This document shows positions 3,021 through 57,823 of a stretch of 58,849 nt of DNA, in pieces. The position numbers and the translations under genes are program-made. Source of the stretch: an uncultured virus (IMG/VR IMGVR_UViG_3300033121_001601) (lineage: Duplodnaviria > Heunggongvirae > Uroviricota > Caudoviricetes); the IMG/VR virus record IMGVR_UViG_3300033121_001601, positions 62,001 to 120,849 of that record; one strand, written 5' to 3'. The notes under the pieces are model-generated. The model saw only the letters and a list, made by a program, of their open reading frames with translations. It was not told the origin of the DNA and made no database searches. Position 1 is the first letter of the stretch. Each line of letters begins with the position of its first letter.

Positions 3021-4415
3021 ATGGCCTACAGTTCCTTCCGTGAAAAATCCGTCTTTTTGGCCGAAATGCAACAAGCCAATGAGAAAATGAAGACCTTGCT
3101 CGGACGAATCAAGGTTGCTCTGAGTGAACAGGGGTATCCCCTTCGGAAAGACACCTACCACTTTCTTACTCGGGTCCTGGAGCCGTCCAACCGAGCAGAG
3201 CGGACCCTGTTCATGCTTTTGTTCCAGTCGGCCTACAGAAGCGAACTGCTATCTGCTGGGAGCTCCTACCTTGCCGTTCGGTTTGCTAACGAATTCATCC
3301 AAGAATTGGTGAAACATCCGGAGCTTATCTCCAGGAATGAAGTTGAACTGATGACCGAGTATGAGGAGCTCGTTGCCGACCTAAACCGCCAGATTACCTC
3401 AATTTCTTTGCCGGTGACGGAAGAGTGGATGCAGCAAGAGATCGAACGCATCTGTGAGGATCCCATTTTGGCCGAAGCTGTTTGGCAAGCCATCTCTGTT
3501 TCGGGCCTTGAAGGCAAGATCCATGTGGAAGATGGCACACTCCCCAACTACGTGGTGGAACAAAAGTCAGGATATTACTTCAGTGTCCTGAAACCATTCA
3601 AGTTCATGCTGCCAAAAAACGGCTGCTGGGAAGCTCAGAACGTCAAGGTCATGCTGGTTGATGGCATCCTGGAACGGGTAAGCGAACTGGACAAGATCCT
3701 GAACGGAGCCATGCAGACCAAGATTCCGACTTTGCTGGTAGCTCATGGGTTTTCCGAGGAAGTGGTTGCTACGATCAAAGCCAACGTAGACTACGGCAAA
3801 TTTAACATCATGCCCGTCAGGCTTACCTCCGACCTGGAGTCCCTGAACGTTTTGAACGATATTGCCGTGGTCTGTGGAGCTGATGTGGTTTCTACCCTAA
3901 AGGGACAGATGGTGGTATTTACCGAGTTCGACTCACTTCCCATCGTTGAGAGAATTCGACTCACTTCCCAAGAGCTGACTATCGAAAATGCCAAAACAAG
4001 GAGGGCCGTTTCTAACCACCTCCGAATGCTCCTGGAGAAAAGGCAAAATCAATCGGAGATATCGGATATCTCCGATCTGATTGACCGTAGAATCCAAGGG
4101 CTCATCTCGGCCGCTGTTACCCTTCGGCTTCCCAACATGCCCGCTTCCAAAAGGGATAATGCCAAGGTCAAGATCGACGTTGCCCTTCGAAGCGCAAAGA
4201 CCCTCCTGAATCTCGGAAAGGCAAACCTTCAGGATGTCAAAGGTTCCCCAGCACCCCATGGGAGCCTCCAGGGAGCCTTCTGGAAGGCTTTGAAGGAGGT
4301 GCAAAGGGAGATTAACACCATGCCCACTCTGAGCGCCTATACCGGTATTTACTTCGCCGGAAAGACCATCCTATCCATGATGACAACAGGGGGGTTGGTG
4401 GAAATTGTTACTTAG
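3021..4415 (+). CDS. Divergent GroEL/Cpn60-like chaperonin
   Basis: Intermediate/apical-domain-like segments GLEGKIHVEDG, VMLVDGILERVSELDKIL, PTLLVAHGFSEEVVATIKAN, LNDIAVVCGADVVS; no GDGTTT motif. Confidence 0.75.
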   Translation: MAYSSFREKSVFLAEMQQANEKMKTLLGRIKVALSEQGYPLRKDTYHFLTRVLEPSNRAERTLFMLLFQSAYRSELLSAGSSYLAVRFANEFIQELVKHPELISRNEVELMTEYEELVADLNRQITSISLPVTEEWMQQEIERICEDPILAEAVWQAISVSGLEGKIHVEDGTLPNYVVEQKSGYYFSVLKPFKFMLPKNGCWEAQNVKVMLVDGILERVSELDKILNGAMQTKIPTLLVAHGFSEEVVATIKANVDYGKFNIMPVRLTSDLESLNVLNDIAVVCGADVVSTLKGQMVVFTEFDSLPIVERIRLTSQELTIENAKTRRAVSNHLRMLLEKRQNQSEISDISDLIDRRIQGLISAAVTLRLPNMPASKRDNAKVKIDVALRSAKTLLNLGKANLQDVKGSPAPHGSLQGAFWKALKEVQREINTMPTLSAYTGIYFAGKTILSMMTTGGLVEIVT

Positions 4416-5272
4416 GTTTTTAGAGCTGTGGTAATTCCCTGAATCAACTTGGTCAATAGCTCATCTGGAATATTGTCTCCCATGTAAGGTTTTAGATTGG
4501 CAACAAGTGAGTTGTGGATCTTTTGGCCCAAACCGCCACCAGGAGCGGTAGCAGCACCTCCCGAGGCTGCTTGAGTCTGCCCCTGAGTTGATGCAGGAGT
4601 ACCAGCCCGACCGGAAGCTGGTGCTTCTCCGGATGCTTGAGCAGCCATCTGATCAATCTGCGCTTGTGGCAGAACAGCCGGAATCTTGCCGACCTTGGTC
4701 AGCTTGTCCAGCTGATTCCAGGTGAGCTGAGTGAGTTCCTGGGCTGCCTGAGCATTGTTGATATAGGGGATGTCCGAGCTAGAGAACAGCCGCTTCAGGA
4801 ACCCGCCCTGCTTGTTGATGGCAAGGGCCTGCTGGAAAGCCGGTGCCATGTTGGCTCCAACAGGTTGATCCGGGTTGTTCTTGGCATTGGACATCATCCG
4901 AGATTTGAGCAGAACAGGGAGATCTTGTCGCAAGAATTCCGAAAGACCCTGGAAGAAACCCATGGCTTTCCCAAGCATCGCACTGGTTTTCTTGGGATCG
5001 TTGCCGGCCTTGCCGGAAATGAGATTGGTCAGCTCAGCTTCAGCAGCATCCAGACCAGCTTTAATGCTGTTCAAAGGAGGAATGAACTCACCGAGGGCTG
5101 ATTCCACTCCAGTCATGGCATCCACAATCTGGGAAATAGTAGCGGTATCCAATTTTTCAGCGATCAAGTAGTGGGCTTCAAGGAGCTGCTTGGCCTCATA
5201 GTAAGCAACAGCTTGTTCCTGGGCCTTTTTCTTGGCATATTCTTCCTTGAGTGTCAAACTCTTCTCGGTCAT
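4412..5272 (-). CDS. Hypothetical protein, possible virion/internal head protein
   Basis: 286-aa ORF with Glu-rich N-terminus and Ala/Gly-rich linker; TATTTA motif upstream. Confidence 0.6.
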   Translation of the reverse strand: MTEKSLTLKEEYAKKKAQEQAVAYYEAKQLLEAHYLIAEKLDTATISQIVDAMTGVESALGEFIPPLNSIKAGLDAAEAELTNLISGKAGNDPKKTSAMLGKAMGFFQGLSEFLRQDLPVLLKSRMMSNAKNNPDQPVGANMAPAFQQALAINKQGGFLKRLFSSSDIPYINNAQAAQELTQLTWNQLDKLTKVGKIPAVLPQAQIDQMAAQASGEAPASGRAGTPASTQGQTQAASGGAATAPGGGLGQKIHNSLVANLKPYMGDNIPDELLTKLIQGITTALKT

Positions 5273-10190: not shown

Positions 10191-10769
10191 ATGTCAACAT
10201 CCAACAAGCTTCACAAGTGTAATTCTTGTGGCATAGAAGATCCAACAGCCTTCCACAATGGCTGCAAATCCAAGTGTCGCCAATGCAAGAAAACAGCACG
10301 GCAAACTCGGTACATTCTGGAACTCGAAGAAATTCAAGGCTTTATTGGCCAAACCAAAGTCTGTGCCACCTGTGGCCAAGAGAAAGACACAACCCACTTT
10401 GTTCCCCAGAACTCCGACTGCAAACCCTGCATATCCCAAAAGAACAAAGTCCGGAGATGCCAGAACTACGCCTTTTACATATGGAAAAATGCCAGATACA
10501 GAGCCTCCAAAAAAGGCCTGGAATTCACCATCACACAAGCAGACATCCACATCCCAGATACTTGCCCCGTCCTCGGTATCCCCCTGTCTACCTCCACCTC
10601 CGGTAGACAACCCAACTCACCCTCCTTGGACCGTATCGACAATTCCAAAGGCTACACACCCTCCAACATCCAAGTCATCTCCTGGAGAGCTAATCGCATA
10701 AAAGCCGATGCCTCCGCAGACGAATTGAGACGTGTGCTGGCCTATATGGAAGGCAGACTCCTTCCATAA
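10191..10769 (+). CDS. HNH-type homing endonuclease with N-terminal Zn fingers
   Basis: CPVLGIPL...SPSLDRIDNSKGYTPSNIQVISWRANRIK; several CxxC pairs. Confidence 0.85.
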   Translation: MSTSNKLHKCNSCGIEDPTAFHNGCKSKCRQCKKTARQTRYILELEEIQGFIGQTKVCATCGQEKDTTHFVPQNSDCKPCISQKNKVRRCQNYAFYIWKNARYRASKKGLEFTITQADIHIPDTCPVLGIPLSTSTSGRQPNSPSLDRIDNSKGYTPSNIQVISWRANRIKADASADELRRVLAYMEGRLLP

Positions 10770-22402: not shown

Positions 22403-22624
22403 ATGAAGACCACGCTGGCCATTGCAAATGTCCCTGTTTGCCGCCACTATACCAACAAAACCGTCCTCATGACGGTTGTTCGTGCCACCAAGACCCTGCT
22501 CATCCTAGAGGATGAGACTGGGATGCAGATTCGTATTAGTCGTGATTACGGAGCAGACCATCCTGTCAAGTGCTGCTACTCGGTTACTCCCAAGGCTCTT
22601 CAGGCGATTCTCGCCCAAATTTGA
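22403..22624 (+). CDS. Hypothetical protein
   Basis: TTGACG promoter at 22352; GGAG SD. Confidence 0.55.
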   Translation: MKTTLAIANVPVCRHYTNKTVLMTVVRATKTLLILEDETGMQIRISRDYGADHPVKCCYSVTPKALQAILAQI

Positions 22625-22684
22625 AAAAAGTCTTGACGGACAAATGGCTCTGGTTTTCTTCAGAAATAGAAGGAGAGAAAAGTA

Positions 22685-23008
22685 ATGGAAATTATTATTC
22701 TGAATTCTGATGTCCTTGCCTTGCTCTGTAAGGCTAAGGGCAAGTGGGGCATGATGATTTCATTCGAAGAATATCCGATGGAGGAGCTTCTTCAGGCTGC
22801 TCCATACCTTGCTCGGGAGGAGTTCCGAGTAATGTCCGTGTGTGGGCGTGGGTTCATCTTCACGGACACCAGTGAAGAGTTGTACGCCCTCTACAACCAG
22901 ACTGTGGGGGATGATGGCCCCACGTTTGAGAACCCCTACAATGGCCCTGCCAGGGTCTACGCTATTACCTGCAACCCAGAAGGGGAGCTCCTGACAGAAA
23001 ACACGTGA
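22685..23008 (+). CDS. Hypothetical protein
   Basis: AAGGAG SD; TTGACG at 22633. Confidence 0.65.
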   Translation: MEIIILNSDVLALLCKAKGKWGMMISFEEYPMEELLQAAPYLAREEFRVMSVCGRGFIFTDTSEELYALYNQTVGDDGPTFENPYNGPARVYAITCNPEGELLTENT

Positions 23009-31485: not shown

Positions 31486-32109
31486 ATGACTGTTATTATG
31501 GCCCTGAAACGTAACGGACAGGTTTGGCTTGGCGCAGATACACGAATCACTGATGGTGATTATGGAATCGACTATCAAGTGAGCGAACACGAAGATTTCC
31601 ATCATTCCCTGGAAATGGACTCAAAGTTAGTTCTACTGGATCATGCTATCATCGGATGTGCTGGGGATGTCACCATGCGGAATTACCTGGAGTTATTTGT
31701 CTCTAGAAACAAGAACAAAACTCTTCCTTTCGACCACAAGCTTCATGTGATCGAATTCTTCATTGTCTTCAAGAAGTTCCTGAAAAAAGAAGCAGGACTT
31801 GGCGACTCTGGCTCTAATGAAGTTCAGGGCATACACAACACCTCTTGGCTGGTTGCCACTCCAGAACGCATCTTCACAGTTGACTATGACGGAGCCGTTC
31901 TGGAATATCCTGTTATGTGCGCGGTTGGTAGTGGCACATACAGTGCAAGAGCTGCCCTGGAATATATGTTGGAATATCAGCCAAAGATTCTGCCCACCAA
32001 AATGCTGGAAAGAGCCCATGAGATTGTTGTCAGGCACAACCTGACCTGTGGCGGCAACCAAATCCAGATAAACGTAACGAAGGCACTTGGCTCTGTTGAA
32101 ACTGAGTAA
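31486..32109 (+). CDS. HslV/proteasome beta-subunit-like Ntn-hydrolase
   Basis: AGGAGG SD; M-T1 start (MTVIMAL...LGADTRIT), SKL, IGCAG, AVGSG, TCGG. Confidence 0.85.
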   Translation: MTVIMALKRNGQVWLGADTRITDGDYGIDYQVSEHEDFHHSLEMDSKLVLLDHAIIGCAGDVTMRNYLELFVSRNKNKTLPFDHKLHVIEFFIVFKKFLKKEAGLGDSGSNEVQGIHNTSWLVATPERIFTVDYDGAVLEYPVMCAVGSGTYSARAALEYMLEYQPKILPTKMLERAHEIVVRHNLTCGGNQIQINVTKALGSVETE

Positions 32110-33780: not shown

Positions 33781-34218
33781 CTAGCTGATCGGGTTGTTTC
33801 CGAAGTTGCCAACAACAATGAAGTGGGTTCCGTCGCTCTTCAGGATGGCAGAAGCACCAACCGTAGCAGCGAAAGTAAGCTTGGCACCAGCAACCGAGCC
33901 AGAGACCAGAGCAGTTGTTCCTGCGGTCTCCTGGGAGCTGGTAACAATGTGAGCCGAGGCCGAACCAACTTTGAACACAAACTCAGCTCCGGGGCAAGAA
34001 GCAGCCGTTGGCAGAACCACGGTCTGAACTCCAGAGCCAGAGATGATATTCACTCCACCGTCACCTGCGGTGAGGGTAGAAGATCCAATGGTTGGAACCC
34101 CGTCAACAGGGAATGGCGCAAAGCCCCGGTTGGCAGTGGTGCGTTCGATGGAAACTCCAGTTTCATCCTTGTAGGTAACTGGACCCAAAGTAGAGTCGAT
34201 ACGAGTTTTAAGCGGCAT
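33781..34218 (-). CDS. Gly/Ser/Thr-rich beta protein, possible virion decoration/fibre component
   Basis: TVVLPTAASCPGAEFVFK...LKSDGTHFIV; TATTTA and AAGGGGG upstream. Confidence 0.6.
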   Translation of the reverse strand: MPLKTRIDSTLGPVTYKDETGVSIERTTANRGFAPFPVDGVPTIGSSTLTAGDGGVNIISGSGVQTVVLPTAASCPGAEFVFKVGSASAHIVTSSQETAGTTALVSGSVAGAKLTFAATVGASAILKSDGTHFIVVGNFGNNPIS

Positions 34219-36836: not shown

Positions 36837-37409
36837 CTAGATGCTGGCTCGGGTGAAGGATTTCACTTCAACCTTCTCACCGCATTTGGCTGAGAATGCC
36901 TTGATGGCCTGTCCAACCGTCTGCTTGGAATCTAGCACAAACGGCTGCTCGGTCAAGACCTTTTCGGAGAAAACTTTCTGCATCTTGCCCTGGAAGGCTT
37001 TCTCCAGCTTCTCGCCCGTCATTCCACGCTTCTCCAGGTCGGAACGAGCAATCTCCTGCTCCGTGAGCAAGTCCTCGTCATCCATGTCTGCCACCGTCCT
37101 GGCAATCGGGTTGGAAGCCATCACGTGCATGGCGATGTTGTTGGCAAGCTCCTGGAACTCCGGGGTCCGAGCAACGAAGTCCGTCTCACAGGCAAGCACT
37201 ACCATCACACCCACACTCTTGTCGTGGTGGATGTAGGAGCCAACCACGCCAGCTTTGGCCGACCTTCCAGTGAAGCTGTCAGCCTTTGCCTCGCCCTTCT
37301 TCCGAAGGATCACCGTGGCCTTCTCAACGTCTCCATTCGCTTCCTTGAGGGCGGAAACGCATGCAGACATACCGGCACCAGTTCTGGCTCTGAGTTCTTG
37401 GATAGACAT
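36837..37409 (-). CDS. tsf: Translation elongation factor Ts (short type)
   Basis: IQELRARTGAGMSAC..AL.EANGDVEKA..ILRKKG, GVVGSYIHH, CETDFVART, IAMHVMASNP, LTEQPFV. Confidence 0.95.
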   Translation of the reverse strand: MSIQELRARTGAGMSACVSALKEANGDVEKATVILRKKGEAKADSFTGRSAKAGVVGSYIHHDKSVGVMVVLACETDFVARTPEFQELANNIAMHVMASNPIARTVADMDDEDLLTEQEIARSDLEKRGMTGEKLEKAFQGKMQKVFSEKVLTEQPFVLDSKQTVGQAIKAFSAKCGEKVEVKSFTRASI

Positions 37410-38413: not shown

Positions 38414-38653
38414 GCCAGAAACCTAACACACCCTAGGCATCCATTCCACCTTTTTTCGTATGTTTCCACCACGTCTTGAAAATAGACTCGTCGATACCAA
38501 GGTAGTCCCAGAGAGATGACTCTCCCCCGAACTCTTGCCACTCTTTCACCAGCTCCTCCAGGCTGTCGTTGCAATATATCTGGTCAGGAGGTTGTGACGA
38601 AACAGAAGGATAGGTGGAGATAGAATCGGAAGCGTCTGTCATTATCAACCTAG

Positions 38654-38742
38654 CGGAAGAGGGGAGATTCGAACTCCCATAGGCTTTCTGGGCCTAACCT
38701 CAATTTTCGAGACTGGTACAATAACCGTTCTGTCACTCTTCC
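38654..38742 (-). tRNA. tRNA-Ser(CGA)
   Basis: Acceptor GGAAGAG/CTCTTCC, loop CT-CGA-AA, long variable arm. Confidence 0.9.
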
Positions 38743-40843: not shown

Positions 40844-41539
40844 TCAGTCCTTCTTGTAGCTGGTGCCATTAAAGAGACGGAGGATGTGGATGAAAAGGTT
40901 GATGAAATCGAGGTAAACCTCAAGAGCCATGTCCAAAGCAGCTAAAGCGGTCTGACTCTCCATTCCCTTCTTCCGGATGGCCTGGGCGTCGAAGATGGCC
41001 AAACCTGTGAACAACAGGACAGCTACGCCAGAGATCAGGTAGCCCATAGGCTGGGAATGAATGAACAAGTTGATTACCATAGTTGCAATCAAACCCAACA
41101 AGCCAAAAAACAGCCATAAACCCCAACTATCCAAATTTTTCTTGGTGGCAAAACCGTAGAAACTTGCTGCTCCAAAGATCCCAGCAGAAGCCAAAAAGGC
41201 CAACAACACAGTAGCTGAACTGTACCGAATCAACAAGCCCGAGAGCGTAAGGCCGTTCAAAACAGTATAAGCTCCCATTAATGCTAACCCGGTAGCCAGA
41301 GAGAGATTTTTTCTTAGCCTGGAATAGGCTACTACAAGGCACAGCTCCACCGTCAACAGGGCAACAAATACCCACAAGTGAGTTAGTAGCCACTGGACAG
41401 CACCGACTGCTAGTGCTACGCCAGAGGTTCCAGCGGTTACCAACAGCATTCCTGTCATCCAGGTATAGACTTTTGCCCCAAAATTTGCAAGCACCTCTGA
41501 AGTGGGGGCTGAGCTCTGTCGATACACATTCGTTTCCAT
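40844..41539 (-). CDS. Bax inhibitor-1/YccA family membrane protein
   Basis: About 7 TM helices; KVYTWM, FDAQAIR, ALEVYLDFINLF. Confidence 0.92.
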   Translation of the reverse strand: METNVYRQSSAPTSEVLANFGAKVYTWMTGMLLVTAGTSGVALAVGAVQWLLTHLWVFVALLTVELCLVVAYSRLRKNLSLATGLALMGAYTVLNGLTLSGLLIRYSSATVLLAFLASAGIFGAASFYGFATKKNLDSWGLWLFFGLLGLIATMVINLFIHSQPMGYLISGVAVLLFTGLAIFDAQAIRKKGMESQTALAALDMALEVYLDFINLFIHILRLFNGTSYKKD

Positions 41540-42662: not shown

Positions 42663-42967
42663 GGTGCTGTCTTTTCTTTCTTGATTTGATTGTGGATCTC
42701 GAAGAGTACATCCGAAAGAGCTTCGTGGACCTGCTGGTCTTTCAAAGTTCTCTTGATTTGCTCCTCGGTAATTGTAGCTCCCAGTTCTTCCGAGACGTTC
42801 TTAACTAGACGACCCAAGGAATTCATGAGAACATTCCGTGCTGTAGCATGATTCATCTGGTAGCCCGCAGCCGACATGATTTCGGCAATCCGGCGAAAAT
42901 CAGTGCCTTCCTCCAGGGTAACGTACTTGGTGGCAGCAGTCTTGATAGTTTCTGGCGTCTTAGACAT
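42659..42967 (-). CDS. Sigma region-4-like HTH protein
   Basis: EGTDFRRIAEIMSAAGYQMNHATARNVLMNSLGRL resembles region 4.2; own SD GGAGAAGG. Confidence 0.6.
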   Translation of the reverse strand: MSKTPETIKTAATKYVTLEEGTDFRRIAEIMSAAGYQMNHATARNVLMNSLGRLVKNVSEELGATITEEQIKRTLKDQQVHEALSDVLFEIHNQIKKEKTAP

Positions 42968-43781
42968 TGGATCCTTCTCCGGCAGAGTCTTGAATCGAAG
43001 GCACTTTTTGGATCACATCATACCGCAAGAGAATGATATTCCTTTCTCGTTCTGGTAGCTTCAGAAGAGCTCTTTTCACCACTTCAACCAAGGTATGGTA
43101 GTCGGAAACAGAATCGCTGCTAACATCCAACTCATCCACCAACAAGTCCTTGATGGAGAGACCAGTAGATATGCCTTTCCCATGCTGAGCAGGAATGGCG
43201 GTATCCATGGAGGAAATCCACCTGGATTTCAGGGAGTGGTTGATGCTATTGAGCATTTTCTCGGAAACACCGAGTTCTGCCGCATTCCCCTCAACCAAAT
43301 CCTTAAAGCCGAGATTCTTCTCCTTCATGGTCTTCAGAAGCTTGTTCTGAGCTGTCCGGATGTGTGAAGGTACATGGAGCTGAGGATCCTGGGAAAGAAG
43401 GTAGTTGTTGATAGCATGGCGTATCCACCACGTAGCGTAGGTACTGAACTTGAACCCACGGTGAGGGTCAAACTTCTCCACAGCTGACAACAAGCCGAAA
43501 GAACCCTCTTGGAGAAGATCTTCCCGAATACGTTGGTGTTCCTTCTTCTTGGAATAGAATTTGTTGACCACAAAAGTGACCAACTTGCAGTTCCGGTTCG
43601 CAAGAACATTCCTCAGATTCTTGTCTTGTTTCGCCAACTTGCCTTTGGCATCCAATTCTTTCGTCTCGGAATACCGGAAAAACAGCTTCATGTCCTCGTC
43701 TCGATCATCCAGATTCTTTGAAAGAGCCGTAGCCGCTGCTTGAGTTATCGCTGATGTTGATGTTTGCTGATATGATTCCAT
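42960..43781 (-). CDS. Sigma70-family RNA polymerase sigma factor lacking region 4.2
   Basis: NCKLV, DLLQEGSFGLLSAVEKFDPHRGFKFSTYATWWIRHAI, LPERERNIILLRY, then ends. Confidence 0.92.
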   Translation of the reverse strand: MESYQQTSTSAITQAAATALSKNLDDRDEDMKLFFRYSETKELDAKGKLAKQDKNLRNVLANRNCKLVTFVVNKFYSKKKEHQRIREDLLQEGSFGLLSAVEKFDPHRGFKFSTYATWWIRHAINNYLLSQDPQLHVPSHIRTAQNKLLKTMKEKNLGFKDLVEGNAAELGVSEKMLNSINHSLKSRWISSMDTAIPAQHGKGISTGLSIKDLLVDELDVSSDSVSDYHTLVEVVKRALLKLPERERNIILLRYDVIQKVPSIQDSAGEGSNV

Positions 43782-44238
43782 CCCTGTTTTTCCTGCCCTT
43801 TCGAGGCCTTGCTGCCCAGTTCATATAGGATGTAAGGCACTCTGCTCGGATTTTCTCAAACTTTGCCTCATTGATCCTGAGGCAAAGACTCCTTGCCAGC
43901 TTTTTTCCAACCTCCCAGGCTTCGATCTCCTCTTGCACCTTTGCAATTTTGTAGGTAACGGTTGCATACCTCAGAGGTTTCCGAACCAACTCCGGATATC
44001 TGTCCTGGTAAGTAAAATCACACTCCAACATCCATGCATGACCAATTTCATGCAGGAAGATGTAGTAGAGGATTTCAAGCTTTCGTTGTGCATATAGGGT
44101 TATCACCTTATCATGGTACTGATTCTTCCTTTTGTTTGAATACTCTATCCTCCAGGAGTGCTGAGAGCAGAACTCAGTCAGACGCTTAATACTCGCCTGG
44201 ATCTCCTCTTGGCCAAGTTCAACAGGAAAAAGTGCCAT
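43705..44238 (-). CDS. HExxH metallopeptidase-like protein (ImmA/IrrE-like)
   Basis: FLHEIGHA...EEIEAW..G..LA. Confidence 0.65.
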   Translation of the reverse strand: MALFPVELGQEEIQASIKRLTEFCSQHSWRIEYSNKRKNQYHDKVITLYAQRKLEILYYIFLHEIGHAWMLECDFTYQDRYPELVRKPLRYATVTYKIAKVQEEIEAWEVGKKLARSLCLRINEAKFEKIRAECLTSYMNWAARPRKGRKNRDGIISANINISDNSSSGYGSFKESG

Positions 44239-44360
44239 GTGAATAACCTTAAATGTAGCAAGCCCTACATTCACTTGGGCCATAGAGCAACCTACCATAC
44301 ATGCACTGTCATATAAACCAATTTAACCGGACTGAATTTAACTCTTCTCCCTCCCCCCTT

Positions 44361-44387
44361 TTCCCTCCCCTCTTGGTTATCCTCCAC
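44361..44387 (+). repeat. Dispersed intergenic repeat, copy 3
   Basis: C/T tract + CTTGGTTATCCTCCAC. Confidence 0.8.
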
Positions 44388-44526
44388 CACCATGGAAAGT
44401 CTGGAAAAAAGATTGGCAAAAGCAACAAAACCTAGAAGTTACGCTTTGAAGTTTTCATCGGAATGCTATTCTGACTTGACGTGGGGGTGTTGGTGGTTAA
44501 GATGGGTTGTGCAAGGAGAAAATCAC

Positions 44527-44778
44527 ATGACAACCCTGATTACCGGCAACACATACCCCGTCAAGGAAAAGCTTAAGGCTCTCGGAGGCCGGTGGGACTC
44601 GGCCCGCAAGGGCTGGATGGTCCCGGACGAAAAGGCTGCTGAAGCTCAGCAGCTAGTAAACTCAGCTTCCACCAACTACACTCCCCGGAAGCGGTACGGC
44701 ATTCGGACGTTTTCTGGGTTCTGTACGCGGTGTGGAGACGATTGTGGCGGTACGGCCTACCACTGCAACTATGAGTAA
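44527..44778 (+). CDS. Small protein (DUF5710-like N-terminus plus Zn ribbon)
   Basis: GNTYPVKEKLKALGGRWDSARKGW; AAGGAG SD; TTGACG...TAAGAT promoter at 44476. Confidence 0.65.
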   Translation: MTTLITGNTYPVKEKLKALGGRWDSARKGWMVPDEKAAEAQQLVNSASTNYTPRKRYGIRTFSGFCTRCGDDCGGTAYHCNYE

Positions 44779-44832
44779 GGTGTTCCTACTCACAAAAGGG
44801 TTCATTCGGTGTGACACTTTGGCTTCGGAGAT

Positions 44833-44905
44833 GCTCCCTTAGCTCAGTGGTTAGAGCAGCCGCCTTCAAATCGGTTGGTCGTGGGTTCAAATCCTACAGG
44901 GAGCG
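44833..44905 (+). tRNA. tRNA with UCA anticodon (opal/UGA suppressor candidate)
   Basis: GCTCCCT/AGGGAGC acceptor, GCTC/GAGC D-stem, GCCGC-CT-TCA-AA-TCGGT anticodon arm, 5-nt variable loop, GGTTCAAATCC, G73. Confidence 0.85.
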
Positions 44906-44909
44906 CAAG

Positions 44910-45371
44910 ATGCGTAAAACATGGACTTCATTTGAAGATGACGAATTCATTCCTATTGTCGATGAGGCCCTTCAAGAGTTGACCAGAGAAGAGTGCGACC
45001 TCGAAAAGGAACCAATTCTGTCCTACATGTTTTCCCGGTATCCCAAATGGGAAAAAGTAAATCTTCTCTATGTGTGCAAAAATGCTAAGAATGGAAGCAA
45101 GAAAGGGGTCATCAATCTTGATGTCGCCGACAGCATTGTTCTTCTTGACAAGGAATACCTTGTTGTCAATTATTGCAAAGTGGTAGCTTTTGAGCCTCGC
45201 AGCGAATGGGTTGCGTTCAATTACATAGTCCAAGCCCACTGGAAAGAGGGTAAACTTCAAGTTTGTGCTGATATTGCCCCAAAAGATGAAGATTTGGAAG
45301 AACTTGACCCTCTGTTTGAACATTACTTGAGCTTGGAAGAAACGACCACACGTTGCGTGTGCAAGACATGA
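44910..45371 (+). CDS. Hypothetical protein
   Basis: Start trimmed to MRKTW just after the tRNA. Confidence 0.55.
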   Translation: MRKTWTSFEDDEFIPIVDEALQELTREECDLEKEPILSYMFSRYPKWEKVNLLYVCKNAKNGSKKGVINLDVADSIVLLDKEYLVVNYCKVVAFEPRSEWVAFNYIVQAHWKEGKLQVCADIAPKDEDLEELDPLFEHYLSLEETTTRCVCKT

Positions 45372-47175: not shown

Positions 47176-48159
47176 TTAGGAGAACAGGTGGCGACAGATG
47201 GCCGACCCTCTATGTTCTAGGTGCTTCCATTTGGTCTTGAAGGAATCCGTGTTGGTACCGCCAAAAAGTGTTGCATCGGAATGTACCTCGGCTAGACCAG
47301 CAAGCAGCAGAGCTGCTTCTTCAGGTCTTTTGCTGAACTCTTTCGCTTCTTTAGCGGATAAACAGTGAAGATCCATGTCCATCTCGATTAGTCGAGCTAC
47401 CTCTTTCTGCTCGGGATAGAGTTCACGGAAAATCTGAGCGGATATCTTGGCATGATTGGGGTAATAGACCTTGCCCTCAGCGTCCACCTCACGGCAGAAA
47501 GGTTTGCCGCAATCATGCCATAAAGCGTACTTCTCAAGGATGTGATCCGGAGGAAGTTTCTCTTGAAGCTTCTTGCCATAGGCCATGAGCCACTGTGGAA
47601 ATTTCCATTGTTTCTGGTAGGAGTAGTGAGGATCCCGAAGGAACTGAAGAAGATCAAGCAGGTGTTCTTTGACAGATCCGCCGTGTTGAAGTATGTTCTG
47701 TCCAGAAGTCTGCTGGGTATTCTCCATGGCTTCCACCACTTCAAACTTCCTCTTCAGACGCTCCGGAGCACCTTCATTCACCCTTTTCCCAGCCAGAGGA
47801 AGACCAGAACAAACCTTCTTTACGTCAGGCCCAGGAACTATTGAAATGGCTGTCAACTCATTCCCAATGTCAGGCTCTCGGAACTCGGCAAACCGAATCC
47901 CCTTCTCTTTGAGCTTCAGAGAGAGCTCAATGAGCTTCAGCTCATTGGGAACGTTCAGGCAGATTACGGAGTTGCTGGTCCGATACCACTCTTTCCACTC
48001 TTCAGGGAAGGATGCTGCAAACTCCATGGCAGCGTGTGTTGTCTGTGGAACTTGGTAGCCGGTAGGTAGGTCAGAATGGGTCACAACATAGAGTTTGTGG
48101 CCAGTCTGTTCAGACAGGGGGAGTTGAACAAGAATTCAAGCTTCGTGGTTGGTGTTCAT
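47176..48159 (-). CDS. Pth2-like peptidyl-tRNA hydrolase fused to an HD domain; in-frame UGA at codon 8
   Basis: KLYVVTHSDL..G.Q..Q..HAA...SNSVICL...FREPDIGNELTAI...LPLA, then QHG..V...LWHDCGKPFC...YPNHA. ATG 48159 (MNTNHEA*ILV...) is in frame, with TGA at 48136-48138. Confidence 0.8.
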
Positions 48160-54631: not shown

Positions 54632-54704
54632 CAGGGGTGCTCAGATTTGAACTGAGACGAGAAGTTTTGGAGGCTTCCATGCTGCCAGATTACATCACAC
54701 CCCT
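54632..54704 (-). tRNA. tRNA-Trp(CCA)
   Basis: AGGGGTG/CACCCCT-G; loop CT-CCA-AA. Confidence 0.9.
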
Positions 54705-55224: not shown

Positions 55225-55269
55225 ATATGGCTCACAGGGAGGGAGTCGAACCCACACCGAGGCAAGTTA

Positions 55270-55819
55270 CATTACCACTATGGCTTTCGCCACCTTTCGT
55301 TTGTGGTCTGGACTATACCTTCATCCCTTTGGGATGGTGCCCGTCTAGTCTCTACACCTTCCGATTTTCGTCGGCTTGGCTCGGGGTTGACATAGCTAGC
55401 ATTGGTGCTAACCAATGACATCTTCTTCAAAATGCCTTTGGCATACATGTTCTAACCACTCTCAAGCCTATCAAGGCAAATTTTGCTCCAAACAATGCAA
55501 GAACAAATTCTACGTTGATAGGCGTCGAAAATCGCTAAAACGAAAAGCAGTTGAATACAAAGGGGGTTCTTGCTCCAAATGCGGGTACAGCAAGTGCATT
55601 GCTGCCATGGATTTTCATCATCTCGATGCAGCCCAGAAAGATTTTGGCATTTCCCAAGCGGGACATACAAAATCATGGGATGCCATTCGAGCCGAATTGG
55701 ACAAGTGCATTCTTTTGTGTTCGAACTGCCACCGTGAGTTGCACGATAGCTAACTTTAGTTTTCTCCGAATTTGAGCACTGTTTCAACTCATGTTGCCAT
55801 GAGAAGCTGCTAACAGTTT
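55270..55819 (-). mobile_element. Group I intron at anticodon position 35/36
   Basis: P1 GCTGT/GCAGC with U.G at the 5' splice site; terminal omega-G; core elements AAATTCGGAGAAAC, GTAGAGACTAGACGG and AAGGTATAGTCC. Confidence 0.9.
55415..55753 (+). CDS. Intron-borne HNH endonuclease, antisense to the intron
   Basis: YKGGSCSKCGY...AMDFHH...ELDKCILLCSNCHRELH. Confidence 0.9.
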   Translation: MTSSSKCLWHTCSNHSQAYQGKFCSKQCKNKFYVDRRRKSLKRKAVEYKGGSCSKCGYSKCIAAMDFHHLDAAQKDFGISQAGHTKSWDAIRAELDKCILLCSNCHRELHDS

Positions 55820-55867
55820 ACAGCTTGCTGCCCTACCATTGGGCGACCTGTGAATAGCGGCTCTATC

Positions 55868-57726: not shown

Positions 57727-57823
57727 TTAACCTGGAGGGATTCGAACCCTCATACTCGGCTTCTAAGCTTGCCTGTGGCGAAGCCATTGAAGACCGATGG
57801 CTTTGCTGTTAGCCTACAAGCTC
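57727..57823 (-). tRNA. tRNA-like gene with 25-nt insert in the anticodon loop (UCA or UAG anticodon)
   Basis: GGCT/AGCC D-stem; TCGGT-[CTTCAATGGCTTCGCCACAGGCAAGCTTAGAA]-GCCGA; GAGGG-TTCGAAT-CCCTC. Confidence 0.6.

Follow-up and report, generated by a model that had tools for sequence, protein, structure and literature searches.

Suppressor tRNAs are well known from phages with altered genetic codes (Borges et al., 10.1101/2021.08.26.457843; PMC11210395; PMC13037316) and have been reported, without explanation, in phages that keep the standard code (Borges et al., Fig. 3A legend; PMC12386605; PMC8386662). Why standard-code phages keep suppressor tRNAs that they do not seem to use is an open question in print (PMC12386605; Borges et al.). 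The case described here is a tRNA with the anticodon UCA in a jumbo phage whose setting is wastewater and sludge. Such genes are not rare: among 36 metagenome loci obtained with one pattern, ARAGORN found a UCA tRNA in 24, on varied tRNA bodies.

The systems most similar to this one are the TGA-recoded gut phages Agate and Jade and a standard-code relative of Agate, all of which encode a UCA tRNA (Borges et al.). As in Agate and Jade, the presumed late genes are those whose relation to TGA has changed; unlike in these phages, in-frame TGA codons have not built up and neither RF1 nor TrpRS was found in the DNA at hand. The suppressor tRNA of the standard-code relative was read by Borges et al. 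as a step before recoding. In the case that they describe, TGA loss extends over the whole genome (4/146 genes) and was ascribed to low GC, whereas here it is confined to presumed late units, at 49% GC. An Arg-like tRNA body and a wastewater/sludge jumbo phage as carrier also set this case apart from those in the available passages of their study.

Retention of the tRNA without recoding recalls the "non-functioning" suppressors of Zeta crAss-like phages, for which a weakening of the host was proposed and whose matching stop is rare in the carrier (PMC12386605). In those phages a scarce or backed-up stop is a feature of the whole genome; here, in contrast, it is common in non-late genes and lacks back-up, and its loss can be polarised by sister genomes. 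The Klebsiella jumbo phage phiKp24 offers another parallel, being a large standard-code phage with a stop-matching anticodon on an Arg-type body (PMC8386662). Its tRNA is labelled Sup-TTA, with no analysis of stop usage in the available passages, and the tRNA described here differs in lacking A20. The UCA anticodon is also common to tRNA-Sec and the selC* tRNA-Cys(UCA) (PMC5389517), from which the present tRNA is distinguished by a 7/5 fold, a short variable loop and G73, with neither an extended acceptor branch nor U73. Suppressor tRNAs in standard-code phages have already been published, and the new element is a late-specific TGA deficit with a direction. The passages available from the literature do not report a stop loss limited to late-promoter genes and polarised by sister genomes, supplements (where Borges et al. 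and PMC12386605 may give comparable examples) and subscription journals aside.

The tRNA gene and its carrier

The window is a stretch of 58,849 nucleotides, positions 62,001 to 120,849 of the IMG/VR record IMGVR_UViG_3300033121_001601 (G000 below), which is linear, 120,849 bp long, 49% in GC and 31% complete. A twin record of 189 kb (G001), about 98% identical overall, is 48% complete. Together they carry genes for a T4-like capsid, portal, terminase, baseplate, sigma factor and RNA ligase, together with the translation-linked EF-Ts, a PTH2-like protein, peptide deformylase, tmRNA and 25 tRNAs. The source is a T4-capsid jumbo phage with the standard code. A search through EF-Ts and tmRNA tags identified no host, the nearest named EF-Ts matches being about 50% identical. 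Host-like genes in the window include those for EF-Ts (36837-37409), the PTH2-like protein (47176-48084), a Bax inhibitor-1 family member (40844-41539), an HslV/proteasome-like protein (31486-32109) and a GroEL-like protein (3021-4415), and the PhoH and UDP-glucose dehydrogenase genes contain LAGLIDADG inserts of the intein type.

The UCA tRNA gene (Table 1) is real. Its 73 nucleotides form a cloverleaf with a 7-bp acceptor, a 4-bp D stem and a 7/5 fold, an anticodon loop reading CU-UCA-AA, a variable loop of 5 nt and the discriminator G73; the stems contain a C31.U39 mismatch and a G27.U43 wobble, and the CCA end is absent from the gene sequence. ARAGORN returned the anticodon tca, as the first-pass annotation had expected, and the cloverleaf which that annotation had seen, with its loop and mismatch, agrees with Rfam (RF00005, 66.4 bits against a cut-off of 29) and with folding (z = -3.8; 0 of 200 shuffles equally stable). 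It was also right in setting tRNA-Sec aside. No tRNA-Sec family reached the gathering level in the Rfam scan, although one lower-scoring match of the same clan exists, and the 5-nt variable loop and 7/5 fold rule out a tRNA-Sec or selC* identity.

The gene is letter-identical in the twin record, where the flanks differ, and unchanged in contigs from 4/4 runs belonging to four studies, a sludge DNA and a wastewater RNA library among them (one study is possibly that of the window's source); it is therefore not an assembly error. In one strain the identity stretches over some 540 nt around the tRNA, so that invariance alone is weak evidence of selection. In two RNA-library runs (X19 and X20), contigs of a 94%-identical strain span the locus at depths of 322 and 256; we do not count these as expression. 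Run X17 does not reach the locus. Cultured phages contain no close match, the best being 83-87%. The 31-39 pair is open in only two of the 24 scorable tRNAs of the twin record, the UCA tRNA and tRNA-Trp(CCA), whose C31.A39 mismatch the first-pass annotation had also seen, and it is closed in 23/23 of the other UCA tRNAs scored.

The 83-aa ORF that precedes the tRNA is likely to be co-transcribed with it. Sigma-70-like sites are not above chance here (two found, 2.0 +/- 1.5 expected from shuffles), and the presumed late motif described below is absent from positions 43800-44833. The ORF converging on the tRNA from the other side holds most of the strain differences, right beside the invariant tRNA. 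In the sister fragment G003 the sigma factor gene is present and the tRNA upstream of it is not; neither sister fragment, G003 or G031, contains a counterpart of the 4-kb segment in which the tRNA lies.

Table 1. Features of the window referred to in the text
Feature	Position	Strand	Basis or remark
Motif-led gene outside the structural block, TAA stop	4412..5272	-	
Motif-led gene outside the structural block, TAG stop	33781..34218	-	
Sigma factor gene, synteny anchor	42960..43781	-	
Sigma-70-like promoter match, 9/12	44476..44503	+	Weak; upstream of the small ORF and the tRNA
83-aa ORF, weak DUF5710 match below cut-off	44527..44778	+	
Type I tRNA gene, UCA anticodon, U20, G73, open C31.U39	44833..44905	+	Sequence, ARAGORN, Rfam, folding, strains
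UCA anticodon (complement of UGA)	44866..44868	+	Sequence; position 34 per ARAGORN
131-aa unknown ORF converging on the tRNA, TGA stop	44928..45323	-	
tRNA-Trp(CCA), A1-U72, G2-C71, G3-C70, G4-C69, G5-C68, G73, open C31.A39	54632..54704	-	Sequence, ARAGORN
tRNA-like gene, 25-nt hairpin insert in the anticodon loop, 3-nt flanking repeat	57727..57823	-	Rfam, 40.4 bits

The body of the tRNA is likely to derive from a tRNA-Arg(UCU)-type body. Its anticodon arm and variable loop matched Arg(UCU) in 7/7 bacterial and 12/17 viral matches, from which they differ by U36A and G39U, and the best whole-gene identity, 62/73, is also to an Arg(UCU). The latter came from a pattern-biased set of 358 tRNAs, the searches for relatives having been seeded with the query itself. 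The pattern of the acceptor and D arm gave 23 matches, 13 with CAU and six with UAU anticodons. With respect to charging, the bacterial Trp set includes C34, A1-U72, G2-C71, G3-C70, G4-C69 and G5-C68 (PMC9976931, Table 1). The UCA tRNA has U34 instead, with G1-C72, C2-G71, U3-A70, C4-G69 and C5-G68, and thus misses C34 and all five acceptor pairs; G73, A9, C35 and A36 are present. From the Arg set of the same table it keeps C35 and G73, A20 and U/G36 being replaced by U20 and A36. The Gly set (U73, C35, C36) is not compatible with its G73 and A36.

The open 31-39 pair is common to the UCA tRNA, to the Trp tRNAs of the source record and of two relatives (G004 and G028), and to two CUA tRNAs, one of which, in the relative G034, has almost the same anticodon arm; the arm of the G028 Trp tRNA differs at 3/17 places. 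McClain is said to have found in 1990 that opal derivatives of E. coli tRNA-Arg insert arginine. We also presume that the anticodon would read UGG as well if U34 wobbles. TGA suppressors are tryptophanylated in E. coli according to other work cited by Borges et al. (10.1101/2021.08.26.457843). Our own estimate for charging by a host synthetase places Trp slightly ahead, somewhat short of an even chance, followed by Arg and then by any other amino acid; with the Trp and Arg sets incomplete and the 31-39 pair open, charging may be inefficient. The first-pass annotation held it to be "probably Trp-charged". This is not established, as the body is nearest to tRNA-Arg(UCU) and the Trp set is reduced to G73, A9, C35 and A36, even though Trp tRNAs of the clade also leave the 31-39 pair open.

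TGA within genes and at their ends

The genome does still stop at UGA, as had been noted at first sight. TGA ends 33 of the 109 genes of at least 80 aa (gene calls are from our own script), BRCT and Bax1-I domains are complete right before TGA stops, and of 46 TGA stops with a full-length match in the twin record 44 are TGA there too. A TGA-recoded phage (code 4) does not agree with the lack of in-frame TGA in structural and lysis genes within the 31% and 48% of the genome covered by the two records. Back-up TAA or TAG codons are not enriched after TGA stops (p 0.17-0.19). Profile searches returned no PF00472 (release factor) match in the twin record, no PF03462 match in the source record and no PF00579 (class Ic synthetase) match in either; among TGA-recoded phages, too, RF1 and TrpRS accompany the code change in some members only.

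Programmed or timed readthrough, proposed along with Trp charging, finds no support in this DNA, in which searches brought up neither a gene with a fixed UGA junction nor a release factor or TrpRS; even the twin record lacks about half of the genome. In a scan of the two records, coding-like pairs of ORFs joined in frame by TGA were no commoner than the controls (TGA 1, TAG 1 and TAA 10 in the source record; 2, 6 and 14 in its twin). When proteins of relatives were aligned to the genome, internal TGA occurred in none of the 82 genes with homologues (among 126) of the source record and, convincingly, in one of 145 (among 206) of the twin; three more TGA sites of the latter were crossed by a single query each, at alignment edges or beyond the gene end. 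Capsid, portal, terminase and amidase genes are not interrupted.

The one convincing case, and the sole internal stop within a conserved gene of G001, belongs to a phrog_4301 gene lying outside the source record, in which TGA replaces Trp171. The gene has kinase-like motifs by eye and no match in a PDB search. The other ten of the 11 cluster members have Trp at this place, and eight of the 11 are shorter at the N-terminus. The TGA would suit readthrough with Trp and, equally, a decaying gene; being strain-private, it was rejected as a client. So was the TGA that ends the 1144-aa LamG-domain gene (G000 22769), the C-terminus of which is conserved across loci: at 62 loci the gene ends, there or nearby, with TAA in 38, TGA in 16 and TAG in seven, one being cut off. 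This is the only TGA-ended structural gene of the source record, and a lineage-specific open frame of 48 codons comes after it, within a 149-nt spacer (L002 4720-4868 (-), corresponding to G000 22620-22768) that also contains the presumed late motif and measures about 20 nt in the three closest relatives. Two more sites were discarded. The TGA at window 10617-10619 (-), across which the alignment with a relative continues, is an antisense shadow of the endonuclease gene 10191-10769 (+). At G000 85006, where a further pair is joined, an ATG follows the TGA after one codon, so that these are two genes.

The distribution of TGA stops is uneven. In the structural block of the source record TGA accounts for 1/27 stops, whereas the final 54 kb have 26/54 (p 3.5e-5), the block boundaries having been drawn post hoc, after the data had been seen. 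Late genes were also defined blindly with respect to stops, as those in runs led by an upstream TATTTA motif. The motif precedes capsid and tail units, and 14 of its 32 occurrences lie within 60 nt upstream of genes (windows that make up 3.3% of positions), while the reverse complement occurs three times; from this position we presume it to be a late promoter. By this definition, TGA ends 1/39 motif-run genes and 50/158 others in G001 (p 6e-5) and 1/16 versus 38/105 in G000 (p 0.02). Motif genes outside the structural block have none in 17, compared with 45/117 (p 7e-4). TAG is retained in the motif runs (15/39). Among non-late genes 32% stop at TGA; of the early genes that have kept it, half (20 of 40) have it in ATGA/TGATG overlaps. 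In nine relatives the TGA share of motif-run genes ranges from 0.16 to 0.81, and only in G034 does it differ from that of the other genes (0.43 vs 0.57). Since TAG is kept, GC stands at 49% and relatives of 42-44% GC use more TGA, the deficit reflects neither a generic preference for TAA nor low GC. In the mirror comparison, relatives bearing CUA tRNAs have few TAG stops in late and other genes alike.

Comparison with relatives gives the deficit a direction. The fragments G003 and G031 do not overlap, and marker trees place each of them as the sister of G001 (support 100/98 and 100/99). Late orthologues have TGA in the sisters only in 13 cases and in G001 only in two (p 0.007), while the other orthologues split 10 to 10; G031 alone gives a late contrast of 4:2, which is not significant. 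More distant relatives agree (relative-only to G001-only TGA in late genes 17:1 for G033, 16:1 for G005, 13:3 for G032, 11:0 for G035, 15:1 for G028, and 9:2 and 4:0 for two others), with weaker, non-significant trends in the same direction for other genes. Wherever the sister and the nearest outgroups had TGA in a late gene, G001 had lost it (8/8, to TAA in five and TAG in three); it gained TGA at two of the 14 late genes with an inferred non-TGA ancestor, and 23 were ambiguous. The sister fragments are themselves partly depleted (motif-run TGA 4/17 and 3/19), and as they cover only about 60% of a genome they may carry a UCA tRNA. A search of 47 related records, four of which are at least 90% complete and most of which are fragments, brought up no UCA tRNA of type I, though split genes would escape it; L008, L010, L020, L101 and L211 were outside this whole-record search, and one pattern match in G037 had no locus. 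The loss occurred in one lineage, which makes it one evolutionary event without an independent contrast.

This loss suggests that the tRNA probably does read through UGA during infection, without any gene having been found that needs it. Of the first-pass reading, the term suppressor thereby gains indirect support, from a TGA depletion specific to the presumed late genes of this lineage; Trp charging and programmed readthrough do not.

Possible roles of the tRNA

The reading we prefer, to which we give an even chance, is that of a leaky opal suppressor without an obligatory client, from which the presumed late genes, by largely dropping UGA, are likely to have escaped. Early transcription from a promoter of host type would be followed by addition of the CCA end by the host enzyme and charging by a host synthetase, and the tRNA would compete with RF2 at UGA. 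Late in infection, readthrough would add tails to abundant virion proteins, and such tails would have driven the change from TGA to TAA or TAG in late units. Early and accessory genes would have kept TGA, many being locked in ATGA overlaps. The phage might gain from disturbed termination on host mRNAs, with tolerance of TGG-to-TGA changes as a by-product; that the one internal stop in a conserved gene of G001 is a TGA at a Trp position counts in favor of this reading. The unrelated large phage G002 counts against this reading: it has two different UCA tRNAs (72535-73891, L006; also L020), the standard code and TAG at 6/221 stops, and TGA ends 12/59 of its long genes, counted without division into modules, with no obvious purge.

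A host low in RF2 could by itself produce the TGA deficit, and the tRNA would then be a tRNA-Arg(UCU) with a mutated anticodon, inert or neutral in effect. In low-RF2 species high expression of a gene does go with a lower ratio UGA/(UGA+UAG) (PMC4989110), the sister fragments already show intermediate values and are rich in TAG, and the tRNA has lost A20 and U36 and has an open 31-39 pair. We nevertheless find this account unlikely: the late value of 1/16 (0.06) compares with 0.30-0.40 quoted for the highly expressed genes of such species in the available passages of PMC4989110, non-late genes stand at 0.58, and the tRNA has kept all its stems and does not vary, whereas a second tRNA of the record, which bears an insert, has five differences between the twin records. 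One could also envision a spare Trp decoder that reads UGG by U34 wobble and evades a host nuclease directed at tRNA-Trp(CCA), with UGA readthrough as the side effect that forced the late purge. The matches to the Trp set (G73, A9, C35, A36) and the open 31-39 pair shared with the Trp tRNAs of G000, G004 and G028, the last with only 3/17 differences in the arm, would agree with it, and it has been proposed in print that phage tRNAs evade anticodon nucleases (PMC10264068). This seems to us slightly less probable still, as the tRNA lacks C34 and the five Trp acceptor pairs, a complete tRNA-Trp(CCA) is encoded by the phage in any case, and the available text of PMC10264068 gave nothing on Trp or suppressors.

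Programmed readthrough of a fixed in-frame UGA in one or a few genes could be hidden in the unsequenced part of the genome, only 31% and 48% of which are available in the two records. The HD-domain gene of G028, which has TAG in place of a Gln codon and ends 20 bp short of two CUA tRNAs, makes a client of this kind conceivable, as does the 48-codon frame that the only TGA-ended structural gene of G000 precedes. This frame, though, begins at a C-terminus conserved across 62 loci, and the chance of such a length is about 10% by our estimate; internal TGA is found in 0/82 and 1/145 genes with homologues, in the latter case private to 1/11 members of a cluster in which 8/11 are shorter; and capsid, portal, terminase and amidase genes run through uninterrupted. 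We place it marginally below the Trp decoder. A host in which UGA codes for Gly or Trp (code 25 or 4), so that the tRNA would be an ordinary sense tRNA, appears very improbable and is already largely refuted by the complete domains ending at TGA. The group I intron of the tRNA-Asn of the window does sit at 35/36, a position known from Patescibacteria. TGA ends 30% of genes, no in-frame use of it was found in the source record, and back-up stops are not enriched. A patescibacterial phage with a tRNA-Gly(UCA) has been described (10.1101/2024.03.08.584096), yet G73 and A36 are unlike the Gly set of U73, C35 and C36 (PMC9976931), and phages compatible with code 25 avoid or back up TGA (PMC10746230).

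It is tempting, though doubtful, to extend the preferred reading, that of a leaky suppressor, to the clade: in its jumbo phages, stop-reading tRNAs may serve to poison termination and not to change the code, with one stop per lineage, an Arg-like body with a loosened Trp-style anticodon arm, and the phage's own late stops rewritten for immunity. The anticodon is UCA here and CUA in 3/3 near-complete relatives. Stop usage under late promoters would then be a footprint that reveals an active suppressor and also the stage that precedes complete recoding. The footprint can be checked across many genomes without culture: the matching stop would be lost solely in units under late promoters, in a direction given by sister genomes and at moderate GC. 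Should this be borne out, such tRNAs are active. Recoding would then have a suppressor-first route in which stop loss is driven by the tRNA, opposite in order to the low-GC-first model, and translation termination would be a target of host takeover.

Other tRNAs and stop codons of the clade

The second tRNA-like gene, at 57727-57823 (-), would yield a UAG, UCG or UCA anticodon on removal of the insert, depending on the cut; the ARAGORN call at 37/38 would make it a second UCA tRNA. The G001 copy differs from it at five places, and the other records contain no homologue of full length. The window's tRNA-Asn(GUU) (55228-55853 (-)) is split at 35/36 by its group I intron (RF00028, 55.4 bits), which is absent from the tRNA-Asn of G001, where the loop has 6 nt as assembled. 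Anticodons have switched elsewhere: window 38653-38742 (-) is Ser(CGA) and its homologue in G003 Ser(UGA), and G001:178693-178766 is Ile(AAU) where G003 has Thr(UGU), G001 also having an Ile(UAU).

Stop-reading tRNAs of relatives lie at G034:139981-140057, G035:60369-60443, G028:288775-288850 and G004:57008-57084, as CUA tRNAs in G034, G035 and G028 and odd UUA tRNAs in G028 and G004. The HD-domain gene at G028:228191-228949, a possible amber client, has its in-frame TAG where two relatives have Gln, and the two CUA tRNAs that it precedes are in tandem. The same relative has a short release-factor homologue (L398 1102-1770 (-)) with PPT and GGQ motifs, its two frames joined at CTT-TGA, which we take to resemble the RF2 frameshift site. 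At G032:4954 (+), in a 70-kb fragment with no UCA tRNA, a single TGA stands at an otherwise invariant Trp of an intact-looking gene.
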